Shown here: piece by piece, positions 1-6,334 of the stretch
Position numbering within the stretch: position 1 is the first letter of the stretch
Layout of the letters: every line of letters starts with the position of its first letter
UHGV virus genome: UHGV-1448388
DNA from: a virus
Direction: 5' to 3' (one strand)
DNA length: 19,865 nt
Program-made: the position numbers and the translations under genes
The notes under the pieces: generated by a model
What the model was told of the DNA's origin: nothing
The model's input: the letters and a program-made list of their open reading frames with translations, nothing else
Databases searched by the model: none

Positions 1-719
1 ATGACATTGTCATATACAAACGTTTTATCCTGCGTCCAGGCGTTGTACCACGGTGTATCTGTAATTTTAAATAACTCTCCCTGGATAAAATCTTCAGAAA
101 CATAAAAAAGAGGCTGACCCGGTATTCTCTCAAATAAAAAACGAGCATTTTTAAATCGACTGACATCTGGAAGAGTTGATACTTTAAAAGTAAGCCCTCG
201 CCCATCTATCTTTTCACCACCTGTTGCAACAGAAAGTAATTCTGATAGAGCTGATGTATCATCATGAACACCATCACCAATAGCCCCCCAACCTCTTACA
301 TCATAACTGTCTCTCCATCTTGCTATCTGAAGTTTTGGGTATTTATTCGCTCCATCTGTGTCTTCTAATTGCTGCCGTAACTGATCAGGATCATACTTCA
401 GCACATTAGGAAAATAGAACTGCTGCGCACCATACGCATCATAAACAGCCATAGAATGGCCTTGCACGGTAACGAATTTGGCAATCTGTCCGTTATATAC
501 CGGATATCCAGCAGCGTTAATGATTATTGGTTGCGAAACAGGAACGTGAGAACCGTCTTCATTCTCCACATAGACCTGAATCTGGTTTTCTGTATTTACA
601 GGATCAGTGTCAATTTTACCGATATAAATTTTGCCATTGGCTACGGCTTTAAAAGAACGCGCCATAGTGAAGAGTTGCGAAGGCATCGATACGATCACAT
701 TGGCTGTAATGTCTGTCAT
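1..719 (-). CDS. Tailspike protein, N-terminal 239 codons (P22 gp9-type head-binding domain plus the start of a beta-helix receptor-binding domain); 3' end lies beyond the window
   Basis: Reverse-complement translation from ATG at 719..717 gives [11 protein letters not shown]...[19 protein letters not shown]...[15 protein letters not shown]...NVLKYDPDQ, which matches the P22-family tailspike head-binding domain as I recall it. Downstream residues carry a [15 protein letters not shown] motif typical of pectate-lyase-like beta-helix domains. GGAG Shine-Dalgarno 9 nt upstream. The ORF track missed it because it is truncated by the window edge. Confidence 0.85.
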
Positions 720-775
720 TTAATTTGCTCCAGATACAAGGAATCGCCGAAGCATGGCTACGGTGAATTTTGGGC

Positions 776-801
776 ATAAAAAAACCCAGCCGAAGCTGGG
801 T
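776..801 (-). terminator. Rho-independent terminator between ant and the tailspike gene
   Basis: Minus strand reads a CCCAGC-TTCG-GCTGGG hairpin (plus 785-800) followed directly by a run of 7-8 T (plus A-run 777-784), 19 nt downstream of the ant stop codon. Confidence 0.55.
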
Positions 802-819
802 CGTTGCGTTGGTTATCTA

Positions 820-1743
820 TCAGTAGTTATGTACTGAAGGAGGTAATTCTTTATTCTTAAGTCTCATCCATGCGGAAAGATTCGTTGGTCCGTCTGGCTC
901 ATTAATATCAACATCTCGTGTATGGTTGATTAAAACATCTCTCGCCATTCCGATAACATACGAGAATTCATGACCGTAGTCGTAGCATCTGCCGGAATAG
1001 TTCGATTGAATTTGTTTTAGCGCCTGATACAGTTCGCGGAATAATGCCTGTGAGCGGTTGGCATAATCCCATAGCCATACAAGGCTGTTTACTTCTTTTG
1101 CAGAAAGCTCGTTGGTTTTCTTCTCTTGTTTGCCAATGAACTCACCTTCAAGTGGAACTCGAGCTGCAAGTGATAGTGCTTCGGTAAACTGCTCCTCACT
1201 GATTTCTTTGTACGAACATCCAAAATGGGATTTCAGTGACGACCACATGGTGATCATCGCCTTAGCCTGTTTTTCTTTTGGCAGAGACTGACCGCGACTC
1301 ATGACGAGTTGTTTAATGGCTTCCTGCTGTTCAGTGGTGATTTTACCCTGCAACGCCTTTTTAGCTTTGCGTGGGTTAACTACATGGCCTTTAGTCCAGT
1401 ACTCGTAGAGCACATCGTCACACTCTTCCTGATACTGGATTACCTTGTCGCGGATTTCAGGGCGGACTTTGTTAGGACTGATGCTGTTCAACCAAGCTGC
1501 CAATTTTCGTAAAGCCATACAAATCATGGCTTGCACCCCACCGGCAGAAGGTATGGTGATTTCCACCATACCATTCGAGAATCGTTGAGAAATCTTCTTA
1601 TGTTGAGATTTCCAGTCTAGCCCCATTCCCTCAACGATAGGTTTCATTGGGGTATACGGTTCGCCGTTGTGATTGACAACATAAAGCTCTGCGCCGTGGA
1701 ATGGTACATTGATAGTAGATACTGCTGTTGCTATACTTTTCAT
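820..1743 (-). CDS. ant: Antirepressor Ant (AntA/AntB-type N-terminal domain)
   Basis: 307-aa ORF. N-terminal motif HNGEPYTPMKPIVEGMGLDWKSQ...IQYQEECDDVLYEYWTKG is characteristic of the phage antirepressor family. Position downstream of arc and upstream of the tailspike matches the P22 immI layout. AGGAA Shine-Dalgarno upstream. Confidence 0.7.
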   Translation of the reverse strand: MKSIATAVSTINVPFHGAELYVVNHNGEPYTPMKPIVEGMGLDWKSQHKKISQRFSNGMVEITIPSAGGVQAMICMALRKLAAWLNSISPNKVRPEIRDKVIQYQEECDDVLYEYWTKGHVVNPRKAKKALQGKITTEQQEAIKQLVMSRGQSLPKEKQAKAMITMWSSLKSHFGCSYKEISEEQFTEALSLAARVPLEGEFIGKQEKKTNELSAKEVNSLVWLWDYANRSQALFRELYQALKQIQSNYSGRCYDYGHEFSYVIGMARDVLINHTRDVDINEPDGPTNLSAWMRLKNKELPPSVHNY

Positions 1744-1806
1744 GTCGTTAATTCCTATGCGTGGTTTTACGATACCGAAGCCCTGACTGTTCCCGCAGTT
1801 GGGGCT

Positions 1807-2010
1807 TCAACTTTCTGCTCTATCAGTTATATCTTTCCCTTCGTATACTTCACCTATATTGCTAATGCTGGCAGAACATCCAAGATGCTTGTATCTTATG
1901 ATGTCCAACACGCAGTCACTACACAGCATCCGACCTGTTTCTTTAGAGTAAATGTATGTTTGATCAGCGTCTGATTCGCTAATGCCGCAGAAACAACATT
2001 CTTTACTCAT
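1807..2010 (-). CDS. Small Cys4 zinc-ribbon-like protein (67 aa), hypothetical
   Basis: ORF with CxxC (C5, C8) and CxxC (C30, C33) pairs. Strong GAGGGGG Shine-Dalgarno about 7 nt upstream. Its ATG overlaps the arc stop codon (ATGA), implying translational coupling. Confidence 0.45.
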   Translation of the reverse strand: MSKECCFCGISESDADQTYIYSKETGRMLCSDCVLDIIRYKHLGCSASISNIGEVYEGKDITDRAES

Positions 2011-2147
2011 ACCATCACCCCCTCTCTCTTCAAGCTGTCCAGCACCCGTTTAATTACTTCTGCGCTAAACGATCGACACTCTTCCTTTGCTTTCTCTTCA
2101 AGGATTTTTTCTAACTTCTCTGGCATACGCAGTGTTTTTACCTTCAT
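2007..2147 (-). CDS. arc: Arc-like ribbon-helix-helix repressor (46 aa from the internal ATG)
   Basis: MKVKTLRMPEKLEKILEEKAKEECRSFSAEVIKRVLDSLKREG has the beta-strand plus two-helix RHH layout and a size similar to P22 Arc. GGAGGA Shine-Dalgarno 5-6 nt upstream of the ATG at 2147. The longer 68-aa ORF-track version would run through the promoter region. Confidence 0.6.
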   Translation of the reverse strand: MKVKTLRMPEKLEKILEEKAKEECRSFSAEVIKRVLDSLKREGVMV

Positions 2148-2252
2148 TGCATCCTCCGCTGTATGTGGTACGCATACATAGTATTTAGGTACGCATTGAT
2201 AGTCAATAGACACCTACATATCCTGTGGTAAAAAATTATTCAGGGTGTGCCG
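2148..2252. promoter_or_regulatory. Divergent immI-type promoter/operator region (candidate back-to-back sigma70 promoters with repeat elements)
   Basis: Plus-strand candidate: -35 TTGATA (2196-2201), 17-bp spacer, -10 TATCCT (2219-2224). Minus-strand candidate: -35 TTGACT (plus 2201-2206), 17-bp spacer, -10 TACTAT (plus 2178-2183). The two -35 hexamers lie within the palindrome ATTGA-tag-TCAAT (2195-2207). Direct repeats GGTACGCAT at 2167-2175 and 2188-2196 (21 bp apart), and TGTGGTA at 2164-2170 and 2224-2230. Confidence 0.45.
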
Positions 2253-2510
2253 ATGTCTGATCGTAAGTACAAAAACCCTCAAGTGAATCTGAGGCTTCCT
2301 GTAGAGATAAAGGAACGTCTTATTGAACTGGCTGAGGCTAATTCTCGTTCATTAAATGCTGAGATGGTCGCTGCACTTGAAGCATGGACCGAAAAAAATA
2401 AACACATTCAAGCACTAGACCTTGCAACTATAGCATCACGATTGATAGATCTTGAACATGATGTTGAGAAGTTGAAATGCATGTATGGCAACAATAAAGA
2501 CGAAAGTTAG
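2253..2510 (+). CDS. Ribbon-helix-helix DNA-binding protein (Mnt/Arc family paralogue, 85 aa)
   Basis: ATG at 2253; the ORF-track start is a GTG two codons upstream. NPQVNLRLPVEIKERLIELAEANSRSLNAEMVAALEAW fits the RHH beta-strand/helix/helix pattern. AGGGTG Shine-Dalgarno-like sequence upstream. Confidence 0.6.
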   Translation: MSDRKYKNPQVNLRLPVEIKERLIELAEANSRSLNAEMVAALEAWTEKNKHIQALDLATIASRLIDLEHDVEKLKCMYGNNKDES

Positions 2511-2533
2511 AGATACTAACTTGGAGTGATGGC

Positions 2534-2782
2534 ATGGCTAGAGATGATCCGCACTTTAACTTCCGTATGCCTTTGGAAGTAAGAGAAAAATTGAAATTAA
2601 GAGCCGAGGCTAACGGAAGGTCAATGAACTCTGAGTTATTACAAATCGTTCAGGATGCGCTATCAAAACCATCACCGATTGCAGGTTACCGTGACGAAGC
2701 AGAACGTATGGCTGATCAGCAAGCAGAAATTGTTAAGAAGATGGTGTTTGAAACCCTGAAAAAAATGTACGAGACCAGATAG
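2534..2782 (+). CDS. mnt: Mnt repressor (ribbon-helix-helix)
   Basis: 82-aa product MARDDPHFNFRMPLEVREKLKLRAEANGRSMNSELLQIVQDALSKPSP... closely matches P22 Mnt as I recall it. GGAG Shine-Dalgarno 7 nt upstream. Transcribed opposite to arc-ant, as in P22 immI. Confidence 0.85.
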   Translation: MARDDPHFNFRMPLEVREKLKLRAEANGRSMNSELLQIVQDALSKPSPIAGYRDEAERMADQQAEIVKKMVFETLKKMYETR

Positions 2783-2824
2783 GTCAATGTTTGTTCGTTG
2801 ATATAAAATAACAAGGTATACATT

Positions 2825-3424
2825 GTGATTGAGATAGGCGTTATGGCCATCCTGAATCAAGAGCCAGGAAAAATTGAAAACGTTTTTTCTGACATATCAA
2901 CATCTATCGAGCGTTCAATTTCAGACTTTGATCGCAGTCATAGCGGCTCTTTGTCTAAAAAACAGGCTTCTGAAGCTCTTAGCAAGATCTACTGCGTTAT
3001 GTCACCTGTAGAGGAAGTTTGCAAAAAGTACATTACATTCATTGACATATTAAGTAATGGTACAGAAGAAGATATTTCCTCACTTAATATTCAACATGAC
3101 GATGTAGATATGTTGAACGATCAGATATCTAAGCTTGATTATGGTATCGCGAAACTGTTGTATACCTTCTTCATCGCTGAGAACAGCGATGCGTGGAAGC
3201 CCCATATGTCAACTCTTACAACAATGAAAAACCACTCAATCAATACTTTTATAGAATACAAAAGGCTAACAATGGGGCTTGTGACGCTAGCAATGCAGCA
3301 CATACCACTATCATATGCTGAACCTGAAGAGTTCACTGAAGAAGAGTTGGCTTCCTTCAAGAAATCAGTTGAAGATTCACATAAAAGATTTGGCATGGAA
3401 GCACCAAAATGGAAAACCGCATAA
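2825..3424 (+). CDS. Hypothetical acidic protein (199 aa; possibly 193 aa from ATG 2843), first gene of an AT-rich accessory cassette
   Basis: Intact ORF in AT-rich DNA. Start is GTG at 2825 (AAGG 8 nt upstream) or ATG at 2843. The 3' end overlaps the next gene by 16 nt. Acidic composition; no family I recognise. Confidence 0.5.
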   Translation: MIEIGVMAILNQEPGKIENVFSDISTSIERSISDFDRSHSGSLSKKQASEALSKIYCVMSPVEEVCKKYITFIDILSNGTEEDISSLNIQHDDVDMLNDQISKLDYGIAKLLYTFFIAENSDAWKPHMSTLTTMKNHSINTFIEYKRLTMGLVTLAMQHIPLSYAEPEEFTEEELASFKKSVEDSHKRFGMEAPKWKTA

Positions 3425-3828
3425 GCATTGTTGTAGATGCAGCGGCTGGACCATTAGAACAATACTTTGCGAAGGCTCTTGCAAACTACAAAAACAGAGG
3501 CACCGTTTCAGCTTATCTTGGTAAGATTGGTGGGTTTGAGAGAAACCATCACGCCGTCTTATCGGGAATTTACAAGTCGCACATCAGGATCCCTGGAGTA
3601 GATGATCCTTGGTTAAGAACAACGCCAATACATCGTAGAGTTAGCGATAACTTTTTGATATTTGCGGTACACAACACATATCCAATTCATATCCAGATCA
3701 TTGCTATCATTAAACCTGATGGTCATGAGAAGGTAAAAAAACTATTGCCAGCCATCATTGATATAACTGAAAAAAGATTCCAATCTCTAAATGAGAGGGA
3801 GCTTAACTCGTTGATTTCATACAAATAA
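3409..3828 (+). CDS. YafO-family toxin-like protein (139 aa)
   Basis: Motifs ANYKNRG, FERNHHAVL and NFLIFAVHN...IHIQIIAIIKPDGHEK...EKRF align with E. coli YafO (FISYKRDG, FERVAHIHL, AHLVYCQG...AWLLIAILKPEPHK...AEAFRMRF) as I recall it. Basic protein whose start overlaps the upstream acidic ORF. Confidence 0.55.
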   Translation: MENRISIVVDAAAGPLEQYFAKALANYKNRGTVSAYLGKIGGFERNHHAVLSGIYKSHIRIPGVDDPWLRTTPIHRRVSDNFLIFAVHNTYPIHIQIIAIIKPDGHEKVKKLLPAIIDITEKRFQSLNERELNSLISYK

Positions 3829-3850
3829 AATATCAACTAAGGGGGTTGGT

Positions 3851-4174
3851 GTGTATACAACAGTTATCGCGATAGCTATCGCACTCATTGTGGTTCAGTA
3901 CCAACTGGCATCTTTAAAACAAAAGATATCTGACCTCAAGACTGAGAACGAAGCACTTAAAAACTCAATAAAAGATGAGAAGAACAAACTATCATTCACT
4001 ATATCTGATATTGAGCAATCCATTGAAATTATTGAGAATAATATTAACAGATTAAAAAAAGAAGATATTCATGAAATCAATGACAATATCAAGGATTTGA
4101 AATCTTGGCTTAGGAATGTAGGACAAATCGCCACATCAACACGAGATAAGCTCAATACATCCATGGATGATTAA
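3851..4174 (+). CDS. Small membrane-anchored coiled-coil protein (107 aa), hypothetical
   Basis: GTG start with strong AAGGGGG Shine-Dalgarno 5 nt upstream. N-terminal hydrophobic helix YTTVIAIAIALIVVQYQLA, followed by a K/E-rich heptad-like coiled-coil. Very AT-rich. Its stop codon abuts the gp16 stop codon. Confidence 0.5.
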   Translation: MYTTVIAIAIALIVVQYQLASLKQKISDLKTENEALKNSIKDEKNKLSFTISDIEQSIEIIENNINRLKKEDIHEINDNIKDLKSWLRNVGQIATSTRDKLNTSMDD

Positions 4175-6334
4175 TTACTCCTGTGCCATTCCGCTTAGCG
4201 ACGCTACAATGCCAGCCCTCGCTAAGCGATTGAACTCTTCGTTTCCAACTGCATCGCGTATTGCTTTTACGGCGGCTTTATTTGCCATAAATCTGCGTTC
4301 CGCCGCCGCTAATGCTTCTTTACTTCCGCCAGCTCTTACTGCTTTCGTGGCTTCCTGAACTGCTTTCTCTATCGCATACCGACCACTACGTGTGGTGGCA
4401 ATTTTAGATACAGCACCTTTTAGCCCGGCGCCAACTAAAGCACCTGCGGCAGCGCCTGCAATGCCCCCTCCTGCTCCACCAACAATGGCACCTGATGTTG
4501 AATTGGCAATTGCATTTAACACTGTTGATGTGACGTTGGATAAACCGGCATCCAGATCGCGTAGTACATTGGCAGTTCTCCCTGTTCTTTCAATATACTG
4601 CTGAGGTTTCACTGCTGCTCTTGCAAGAGTGCCATATGCATCTGCAATTCTTCCAAGCTCTGAGGAATATCGGCTAATGGCTTTTACATTTTGTGGAGTG
4701 AGTATCTCTGCGATATGGTTAATTCCTGCTGCATCAGCTTTACCACCACGTACACCATGCGAGATAGCATCTTGCAACATTGATGATATAGCAGGAACAC
4801 GCTCTGATTCTGGCAGCGCGCGGATCATAGAATGGAATCCAGCAGGACCATTAAGACCTTTAGCTGACGATGATTGAAGGGATTTTACTCCATTCGTAAT
4901 CAGTGCATCTGTTGCCAAATCACGCCCGAAAACAGACTCTGCACTCTCTTGTGCTGATAACCTCGCTTTAGACAGATCATTAGCTTTTTGCCAGTCATCA
5001 AGAAATCCGCCGTTTTCCGCCATTGTGCGCATATCATCAGTAATTGCCCGGCGTATTTCCCCTGCTCTCCTTGCCGCATTTGCCTCTCCGCTACGCTTAT
5101 ATTTTTGCTCCGCATCAGCAAATTTCGCTCTCCATGCTTTCATGCCGTCAAATGTTACTCCACCTTGATTGTTTGCCTGAACAAACTGTTTCATTTCAGG
5201 AGTAAGCGGTATGCCGGCAGATCGCTCTGCCTGAATAACGGCATTACCATTTAGCATTCTTGCTTTTTGATTTGGCATTGTTGACCGCACGTCATCCCAT
5301 GCCGCGCGCTCGGCATCCTTCATCTGATCAAGATTTTGAAGAATCCTTTGTTTTATAGCCGCACTTTTTTCTGATGCCGTTCCAGATGCGGCCCCAAATT
5401 CATCAAGGTTTCGACTTAACTTTGATGATATTTCGTTAAATGCTGCCTGATGGGCGTCCTGAACAATTCCTGGTGTTGATGCCAATGCGCCTTCGGCTTG
5501 TGCAATTCCACGACTTCCAGATCGCATTCCTGGTGTTAATGCGTTTATATCAATTCCAGCAGACTCAGCCGCTTTTGCTACATCTTCGGACACATTAGCG
5601 GCCTGACTGGCAATTGACTGACGCCCAGCACCTGACTTTGCCATCCTAGAAACATCATTAGCAGAATTCAGTGCTGCACCACCAAGAGCCTGTGAAACCC
5701 TTGGCGCAATAACGCGCCCGACACCTGAAAGAACGCCTTGAGCACCAATATTGATACCACCGTTAATGGCAGCATTTTGTGCAAAGTCGCCCTCCTGATT
5801 TGCAGCATCAGCAAGAGAACCTGCAATCATGTTTCCGGCGGAACCGATATCTCCAGCGAGCTTTGCTGTCGCTCCAGCAGCTTTTGCCGCTGTGCCAATT
5901 GGCAGGAGATACCCACCAATTGTTTCACCGGCTTGCGCGTAAGGGTCTGTCGGTCGCTCGGCAGGGCGATAAACATCATCCAAAACCTTGGGGCCGCCAA
6001 GCCCCTGGCTGATTGCATTAATCAGACTTGCGCCACCCTGCAATACGTCAAATGGTATGTTTACCAGACCACGACCAGCCTGTTCTGCAATTTGCCCTGC
6101 ACTTTGACCACCTGTGAGCCAATCACCAGCTTGTTGCATCAATGATGGTTCTTCTTTCTGCTGCTGAGGCGGAGGGTATGCTGCATAAAACTGATCTCTT
6201 GCTTCAGCCCATTTGTCACCAGCCTTAGGGGCAACAACCTCATCAAAATATTGCGCTTGAGCCTGTGCTTTCTGTTCTTCAGTTAACGCCTGATACTGTG
6301 GAGAAGCGATAACATCTTTCCATGCTTTAGCCAT
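4175..6334 (-). CDS. DNA ejection (injection) protein, P22 gp16-like
   Basis: 719-aa ORF in the gp16 position after gp20. Ala/Gly-rich with low-complexity segments. Start overlaps the gp20 stop (TAATG). Confidence 0.7.

Follow-up and report, generated by a model that had tools for sequence, protein, structure and literature searches.

The DNA analyzed here is a stretch of 19,865 nucleotides (nt) of virus genome UHGV-1448388, hereafter called the window. It was 100% identical to Enterobacteria phage CUS-3 (CP000711.1; compared at 1700-2900), a K1-specific P22-like prophage of Escherichia coli RS218 with a genome of 40 kb. Within its "ant moron," which is flanked by an ejection-protein gene and the tailspike gene, CUS-3 carries an immI trio of ribbon-helix-helix (RHH) proteins, namely an Arc-like repressor of 46 amino acids (aa) on the minus strand and, on the plus strand, an 85-aa protein followed by an 82-aa P22-type Mnt. 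Our comparisons indicate that the 85-aa protein is the Mnt-equivalent cognate to the local control region, i.e., the resident repressor of a separate immI type, and that the P22-type mnt is stacked behind it without a P22 operator of its own. We propose, with a probability of about 0.5, that this operator-less Mnt would be co-transcribed with the resident gene and would act in trans by silencing ant of P22-immI phages. Positions are given in window coordinates, to which 4752 is added to obtain the position in the CP000711.1 record.

The three RHH proteins each scored above the gathering threshold of the Pfam Arc family (PF03869, 20.4 bits). The immI gene content was also present, with ant, sar and the arc-like gene on one arm, the mnt-type genes on the other and a divergent region between them. 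This agreed with the first-pass annotation of this DNA, which had described an immI-like module with three RHH proteins and with mnt as the second gene of its plus-strand arm (Table 1). When aligned with their P22 counterparts, the Arc-like protein was 36% identical to Arc, the 82-aa protein was 80% identical to Mnt, and the 85-aa protein was only 32-34% identical to Mnt.

We have examined the 85-aa protein by domain, structure and distribution. The N-terminal part of this open reading frame (ORF) encodes an RHH domain whose beta-strand (PQVNLRLP) is Arc-like. In the Protein Data Bank, the protein came closest to P22 Mnt (1mnt, E = 1.9e-5, over residues 8-71), with Arc as the next match. Like the 82-aa protein, it belongs to phrog_795 (7e-26 and 2e-35 for the 85-aa and 82-aa proteins, respectively). 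PF11423, the C-terminal tetramerization domain of Mnt that Pfam recognized in the 82-aa protein, was not matched. AlphaFold2, run on the single sequence without an alignment, placed helices at residues 17-48 and 57-79 with moderate confidence (mean predicted local distance difference test score of 74). The beta-strand was unmodelled in the monomer, and the model was used only for the predicted C-terminal helix 57-79. The protein was 82% identical to SEN22_18, the sole Mnt-like gene of Salmonella phage SEN22, with a ratio of non-synonymous to synonymous substitution rates (dN/dS) of 0.03, and 45% identical to the Mnt homologue of the L/ST64T type.

The 85-aa gene and its control region were found in 146 of 5426 complete E. 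coli genomes. In only 44 of these 146 was the gene in tandem with a P22-type mnt, and the three-gene layout at a coverage of at least 80% was likewise present in 44 of the 5426. The gene alone, with the same control region, was found in SEN22, E. coli 100117, E. coli 779 and O104:H4, and in about 100 E. coli genomes. The pair formed by the 85-aa and arc-like genes also occurred in Arsenophonus, Phlomobacter, Xenorhabdus, Photorhabdus and Chimaeribacter, without any P22-type mnt. Because the gene and the control core are kept together across genera, and because the gene mostly occurs alone, the 85-aa protein is predicted to be the resident repressor of this module.

The divergent control region contained a leftward Pant-like and a rightward Pmnt-like promoter-like site, whose -35 boxes overlap back to back. 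Its 57-bp core was nearly invariant and the flanking leaders variable among seven Escherichia/Salmonella loci. In five other genera the core was still 82-96% identical, whereas the cognate proteins were only 48-59% identical and the flanking leaders could not be aligned. The -10 hexamers differed between genera with the TAnnnT pattern retained, and both of the two SEN22 substitutions raise the symmetry of the 31-bp dyad. The 19-bp and 31-bp dyads were conserved together with the 85-aa protein across genera. This pattern is typical of an operator/promoter unit matched to two conserved protein N-termini, the strands MS(D/E)RKYKNPQVNLRLP and MKVKTLRMPE. As to which protein would bind which dyad element, the dyads are taken as candidate operators only.

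Two further observations concern recognition. The recognition strand of the 85-aa protein (PQVNLRLP; window 2253-2300) is nearer to that of Arc (PQFNLRWP) than to that of Mnt (PHFNFRMP), and the conserved core holds three ATAG(T/A) motifs resembling P22 Oarc half-sites (2176-2212). The Arc-like strand and the Oarc-like motifs suggest a shuffling of specificity between the Arc and Mnt lineages.

The N-terminal strand sets the specificity of Arc and Mnt, and the 82-aa protein is identical to P22 Mnt over residues 1-13. This segment includes R2, H6, N8 and R10, which are reported to be the DNA contacts of Mnt (Knight & Sauer). A search that allowed up to three mismatches and covered both the window and the complete CUS-3 genome detected neither the P22-type Omnt (TAGGTCCACCGTGGACCTA) nor Oarc. 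Genome-wide, the closest approach to Omnt had 6 mismatches in 18 positions, a score that shuffled sequence also reached. By comparison, the canonical loci carried Omnt at 0-1 mismatch about 75 nt upstream of mnt. The 23 nt that separate the 85-aa gene from the P22-type mnt contain no P22 promoter/operator DNA, and homology to P22 and to the canonical E. coli loci (E1620) resumes at 2515, with the end of the mnt leader. The genome counts were compatible with this view. P22-type mnt occurred in 219 E. coli genomes (220 places), the P22-type control region in 173 and the stack in about 44, numbers that add up. At the threshold of the scan, neither the gap between the 85-aa gene and mnt nor the DNA after mnt had a promoter-like or terminator-like site. 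Given the lack of an intervening promoter or terminator and the 23-nt gap, co-transcription of the two genes is the simplest reading. The scan also revealed no plus-strand terminator-like site at 2253-4300, and the cargo genes downstream (2825-4174) are probably co-transcribed with both Mnt genes.

The origin of this arrangement could be traced by comparison with the IMG/VR locus L102, which aligned with window positions 1-1494, 1728-1814 and 2515-5773 (92-97% identity). In L102, P22 arc and a perfect Omnt occupy the interval from the sar hairpin to the mnt leader. The comparison therefore points to CUS-3 as an L102-like phage whose P22 arc/operator core gave way to 1815-2514. The left edge of the swapped cassette is the sar terminator hairpin, and L102-type homology stops at 1814. 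As read from the alignment, the incoming cassette comprises ORF67 (a 67-aa protein gene), the arc-like gene, the control region and the 85-aa gene, and the old mnt and cargo stayed in place. The P22-type mnt is the relic of an earlier P22-type immI, left with its 19-nt leader directly behind the new Mnt gene.

Stacking was found repeatedly. In the IMG/VR set, which was not dereplicated, 16 of the 80 loci with the 85-aa type had a run of two or more Mnt-size RHH genes on the same strand, with at least five partner types. The second gene was of the P22 type in L022-L030, of the type resident in O157:H7 lambdoid prophages in L031, L032 and E. coli LI60C3, and of three further types in L088, in L092/L093 and in the Arsenophonus loci L014/L096. 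L024 (IMG/VR 2541047931_000005, 2495-3536) contains a triple, with a third-type resident Mnt followed by the CUS-3 85-aa gene and then by the P22-type mnt, a third-type arc-like gene on the minus strand, and spacings of 17-23 nt throughout; L070 is its double counterpart. In both L024 and L070, the 85-aa gene is itself stacked second, with 17 nt of its leader kept and none of its operators present. L024 reads like a layered record of two successive replacements of the immI core. In E. coli LI60C3 the stacked gene is of the O157-prophage type, and a motif search detected no O157-type operator motifs in that stack. In every case examined, only the promoter-proximal Mnt gene matched the local control region.

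We have also investigated if the stacked mnt shows signs of decay. The dN/dS of the CUS-3 gene was 0.09 against P22, and its comparison with L102 mnt gave 10 synonymous differences and 1 non-synonymous difference. A 99%-identical allele is the resident Mnt beside a perfect Omnt in L102-L107. All nine distinct stacked DNA alleles were intact and all kept R2, H6, N8 and R10. The ratio of non-synonymous to synonymous polymorphism (pN/pS) in the RHH domain was 0.09 for these nine alleles vs. 0.07 for 24 canonical ones. The stacked copy looks functional from these data, with no relaxed constraint. The dN/dS between the CUS-3 and TW14425 mnt genes was tried as a selection test and rejected as decisive, given the within-gene recombination past ~2659.

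Table 1. Features of the CUS-3 immI region and its surroundings (window coordinates)
Feature	Position	Strand	Evidence or remark
ant, P22-type antirepressor, 307 aa	820-1743	-	Pfam P22_AR_N 1.1e-45 and P22_AR_C 5e-29 (PF10547/PF10548); named ant in CP000711
sar antisense RNA, opposite the ant 5' end	1745-1812	+	Rfam RF00262, 84.6 bits vs. gathering threshold of 43, E = 2e-17, full-length model
ORF67, 67-aa CxxC...CxxC protein, between the arc-like gene and sar/ant	1807-2010	-	phrog_7150, full length, E = 3.4e-50
Arc-like RHH repressor, 46 aa, first gene of the leftward arc-ORF67-ant arm	2007-2147	-	Pfam Arc 3e-8, 33.8 bits; WP_000865489.1
Divergent control region	2148-2252		Promoter-like sites, repeats, conservation; conserved core 2160-2216 (57 bp)
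19-bp dyad TGTATGTGGTACGCATACA	2160-2178		Over the leftward -10/+1 region; candidate operator
31-bp dyad TAGGTACGCATTGATAGTCAATAGACACCTA	2186-2216		Over both -35 boxes; candidate operator
9-mer direct repeat GGTACGCAT	2167 and 2188		Copies 21 bp apart
Leftward Pant-like promoter-like site	-35 2206-2201, -10 2183-2178	-	Promoter scan
Rightward Pmnt-like promoter-like site	-35 2196-2201, -10 2219-2224	+	Promoter scan
Resident Mnt-equivalent (predicted), 85 aa	2253-2510	+	Pfam Arc 3.3e-10, 40.1 bits; phrog_795 7e-26
Stack junction	2511-2533	+	The P22 mnt leader survives only in its final 19 nt, 2515-2533 (ACTAACTTGGAGTGATGGC), with the GGAG ribosome-binding site
Stacked operator-less P22-type Mnt, 82 aa	2534-2782	+	Pfam Arc 1.1e-27 (96.0 bits), Repressor_Mnt PF11423 2.5e-15
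199-aa ORF	2825-3424	+	PHROG and PGAP names
YafO-family toxin	3409-3828	+	Pfam YafO_toxin (PF13957) 3.2e-11
hkcB	3851-4174	+	PHROG and PGAP names

From these observations we infer the following mechanism. In the lysogen, the resident Pmnt-like promoter would drive both Mnt genes and the cargo. The 85-aa protein would keep the Pant-like promoter of CUS-3 off, and the 85-aa and arc-like proteins would together run the phage's own ant switch. The P22-type Mnt, which has no site in CUS-3, would bind Omnt of incoming or co-resident P22-immI phages, such that a foreign broad-spectrum antirepressor would be kept silent and the CUS-3 cI repressor and lysogeny would be protected. The targets inactivated by P22 Ant include, beyond the repressor of P22 itself, those of the heteroimmune phages L, lambda and 21 (Lemire et al. 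2011, PMC3121763), and the cI repressor of CUS-3 would therefore be shielded if a foreign ant were silenced. Rival immI types do co-circulate in E. coli (P22-type in 173 genomes, O157-type in 321), which we count in favor of this proposal. With each further cassette replacement, another heterotypic Mnt gene would join the stack, giving a layered secondary immunity. The first-pass annotation had suggested that an added repressor could alter cross-immunity between related prophages, which is a sensible consequence of the layout. A wider version of the proposal is that enterobacterial temperate phages acquire, through successive replacements of the arc/operator core, arrays of up to three heterotypic Mnt genes in which operator-less repressors follow the resident Mnt, each silencing a different rival ant promoter and together sparing the primary repressor of the prophage from foreign Ant proteins, with the P22-type mnt of CUS-3 as the first named example; this we put forward tentatively, as somewhat less probable than not.

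Several findings weigh against a role in trans. Identity between CUS-3 and E. coli TW14425 breaks off within mnt, at ~2659, which denotes recombination, and the low pN/pS of the stacked alleles could thus be imported from canonical copies. By its cassette-swap origin, the stacked mnt could be a recent passenger, and the many 100%-identical matches point to a nearly clonal CUS-3 lineage. Stacking is not universal, since the P22-type mnt loci (n = 80) comprised 72 canonical singles and 8 copies stacked behind the 85-aa type, with no stack behind the 72 canonical residents. Finally, mnt transcripts were undetected in lysogens of Kapi1, a P22-like E. coli prophage (PMC12922286), so that expression of the Mnt arm in a prophage cannot be assumed.

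The main rival explanation is that the P22-type mnt is a neutral leftover, a recent passenger of cassette replacement that, whether transcribed or not, has no useful function and will decay. Such a replacement is exactly what the L102 comparison displays, CUS-3 offers no cognate operator, its lineage is young and clonal, the L024 triple can be read as a stratigraphic record of two replacements, and recombination inside mnt could keep refreshing the stacked copy from canonical alleles. Against it, all nine distinct stacked alleles have intact reading frames, with the four contact residues retained. The pN/pS of the stacked alleles equals that of canonical copies. Moreover, the same compact architecture (ribosome-binding site kept, promoter/operator gone, spacing of 17-23 nt) recurs with at least five partner types in several genera, and TW14425 retained the junction while the cargo was exchanged. 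We consider the neutral leftover unlikely, although by no means negligible.

The P22-type Mnt might alternatively act in cis as a second repressor, binding weakly to the 31-bp TAGGT dyad or acting on a promoter of the cargo or of a host gene; the switch would then gain a genuine second layer, as in the first-pass annotation but with the roles exchanged. The outer arms of this dyad (TAGGTACGC and its partner) share TAGGT with the Omnt half-site TAGGTCCAC, matching 7 of 9 positions on one side, and both proteins would come from one transcript. However, the half-sites of the dyad are 22 bp apart from center to center vs. 10 bp in Omnt, and the 40-kb CUS-3 genome contains no Omnt-like site above chance (phage genome only; the host chromosome was not searched). 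The stacked 85-aa type in L024 and L070, without a trace of its own operators, also argues that stacked genes need no local site in general. A cis-acting role appears improbable. Least probable is the view of the first-pass annotation, in which a P22-type Arc/Mnt switch received the 85-aa paralogue as an extra layer between the promoter and mnt. It fits the gene order of the plus-strand arm, and the 85-aa protein is indeed an RHH homologue of Mnt and Arc, but the comparative data contradict it: CUS-3 lacks the P22 operators and promoters, the control region and the 85-aa type are found and vary together in genera that have no P22-type mnt, and most loci have the 85-aa gene alone. The roles are therefore inverted with respect to that view: with no Omnt or Oarc in CUS-3, it is the P22-type mnt that is the add-on.

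The module was compared with known systems. The immI region of P22 is a textbook regulatory switch, yet what Ant does, and what orphan mnt genes do in relatives such as L and ST64T, is still called unclear. CUS-3 shares with P22 the position between gene-16 and tailspike homologues, the divergent promoters with an RHH repressor per arm, the sar RNA, the P22-type Ant and, in one of its plus-arm genes, a true P22-type Mnt (80%, PF11423). In contrast, its operator/promoter DNA is unrelated to that of P22, and the control region is of another conserved type, in which neither the P22 Oarc/Omnt sequences nor the P22 promoter layout was found and the -35 boxes overlap. The promoter-proximal repressor is of the other Mnt type, with an Arc-like beta-strand; the Arc of CUS-3 has 46 aa vs. 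53 aa in P22; ORF67 is an extra gene between arc and ant; and the P22-type mnt has neither Omnt nor a terminator and would read into cargo. The module of SEN22 (SEN22_18/SEN22_19) is closer, with an 85-aa-type repressor (82%), the arc-like N-terminus MKVKTLRMPE and a control core that is 96% identical. Nevertheless, the modules of SEN22, E. coli, Arsenophonus, Xenorhabdus and Photorhabdus contain only the resident Mnt-type gene, unlike CUS-3, and in SEN22 this gene ends in a P22-like terminator, ORF67 is missing and ant is disrupted by a transposon.

The orphan mnt genes of L, ST64T and ST104 resemble the stacked gene in that they, too, are Mnt-family members retained in an ant moron that has no antirepressor module cognate to them. 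These mnt-like genes, which have no arc or ant beside them, were called a "remnant" or of unknown function by the authors (PMC8022706, PMC2629481). They differ in standing alone with an upstream region of their own, whereas the CUS-3 orphan is embedded in an operon that belongs to a working immI with a different specificity and is a bona fide P22-type allele that is the resident repressor elsewhere. The crosstalk of antirepressors (Gifsy/Fels; P22 Ant on L, lambda and 21) follows the same selective logic, in which a foreign antirepressor inactivates a heteroimmune repressor (PMC3121763), but that work concerns antirepressors, not stacked operator-less repressors. In the literature searched, which did not cover the CUS-3 genome paper, there was no description of stacked, tandem or second mnt genes, or of an operator-less repressor of a foreign ant promoter.

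The layout itself has been on record since 2007. CP000711 annotates ant at 820-1743 on the minus strand and, on the plus strand, two genes both named mnt (2253-2510 and 2534-2782), and the layout was drawn in PMC2629481. The suspicion that this arrangement had already been described is thus correct as far as annotation and drawing go, but the arrangement was never interpreted there. All three RHH proteins are labelled "Arc family DNA-binding protein" by PGAP in UTI89/NU14-type genomes, which carry identical prophages. phrog_795, the PHROG holding Mnt, is labelled "partition protein ATPase," and this label appears to be the source of the wrong mnt product name in many RefSeq phage records, including epsilon34, ST64T, SEN22 and SPN9CC. 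The feature is a real one of a known phage, and its parts come from known families. What is new is the reassignment of the resident and extra roles, the recognition of a second immI type that is widely conserved and has operators of its own, and the repeated stacking of operator-less Mnt genes.

On the leftward arm, the "bsq2 boundary sequence" of CP000711 (1753-2234), labelled non-coding, contains sar, ORF67 and the arc-like gene. In Villafane et al. 2008 (PMC2629481), the moron of CUS-3 was drawn with a count of six genes, and arc was said to be apparently lacking; given the presence of the arc-like gene, sar and ORF67, this statement needs correction. The 46 aa of the Arc-like protein are counted from its ATG, the mechanical ORF extending to a GTG at 2213, and the dN/dS of its gene was 0.03-0.08 among E. 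coli alleles. The ATG of ORF67 overlaps the stop codon of the arc-like gene as ATGA, and ORF67 belongs to the arc-ant arm. It was nearly invariant in 28 of 179 related loci and carries no annotation in CP000711 or in PGAP of NU14. ORF67 had no Pfam match, and PADLOC returned no convincing defence-system match for ORF67 and the cargo genes. A resemblance of its CCFCG...CSDC segment to the ClpX zinc finger is unsupported.

Cargo varies at the position that separates the arc-like gene from sar/ant. This slot is occupied by the 67-aa CCFC...CSDC protein (phrog_7150) in CUS-3, an unrelated 73-aa ORF in E. coli 779 (L011 2142-2363) and a 57-aa ORF in LI60C3 (L013 2190-2363), and it is empty in SEN22. 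Wherever the slot is occupied, the start of the ORF overlaps the stop codon of the arc-like gene as ATGA. In O157:H7, a homologous ORF67 stretch is 95.6% identical, with an N-terminus that lacks the first Cys pair, and PGAP leaves it unannotated. Inside the 5' end of the 85-aa gene there is a weak terminator-like hairpin on the minus strand (2277-2294), which might modulate read-through of the late operon towards ant and tailspike.

The cargo genes on the plus strand matched phrog_18235, phrog_1651 and phrog_5962. The 199-aa ORF overlaps the gene of the YafO-family toxin by 16 nt, and the two may act as a toxin-antitoxin or abortive-infection pair in which the upstream partner would be unusually large. 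E. coli TW14425 shares the Mnt stack but has other cargo, a hypothetical protein and a PIN-domain protein (L007 3589-4847). The stop codon of hkcB directly adjoins that of the convergent 719-aa ejection-protein gene (4174/4175).

Modules of other specificities were also observed. E. coli genomes with the type-3 control region numbered 19. In O157:H7 (NZ_CP017249, L009 2096-3751), an ant/arc-like/Mnt-like module of another specificity is located inside the cluster of tail genes of a lambdoid prophage, with minor tail protein L on one side and a C40 peptidase on the other, and is present in 321 of the 5426 genomes; immI-type modules are thus not confined to P22-like podophages. The Mnt specificity types share a C-terminal coding end (...EALLETLKTMYGKD...) with 92-94% DNA identity (e.g., L024 2911-2983 and window 2480-2510), and 75 genomes gave partial matches to only this conserved mnt 3' segment. 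The segment is probably a recombination joint that reassorts N-terminal specificity domains, C-terminal domains and cargo.

For CUS-3 itself, the record is corrected in that the sequence labelled a "non-coding" boundary contains a sar RNA and two small genes, one of them arc-like. If the stacked gene were only a relic, it would amount to ordinary mosaicism in a known phage. If operator-less Mnt copies are retained because they silence rival antirepressors, the orphan mnt genes of L and ST64T would be explained, cross-immunity between prophages of pathogenic E. coli (ST95 K1, O157, O104) could be predicted from sequence, and a repressor-based layer would be added to prophage-encoded defence.

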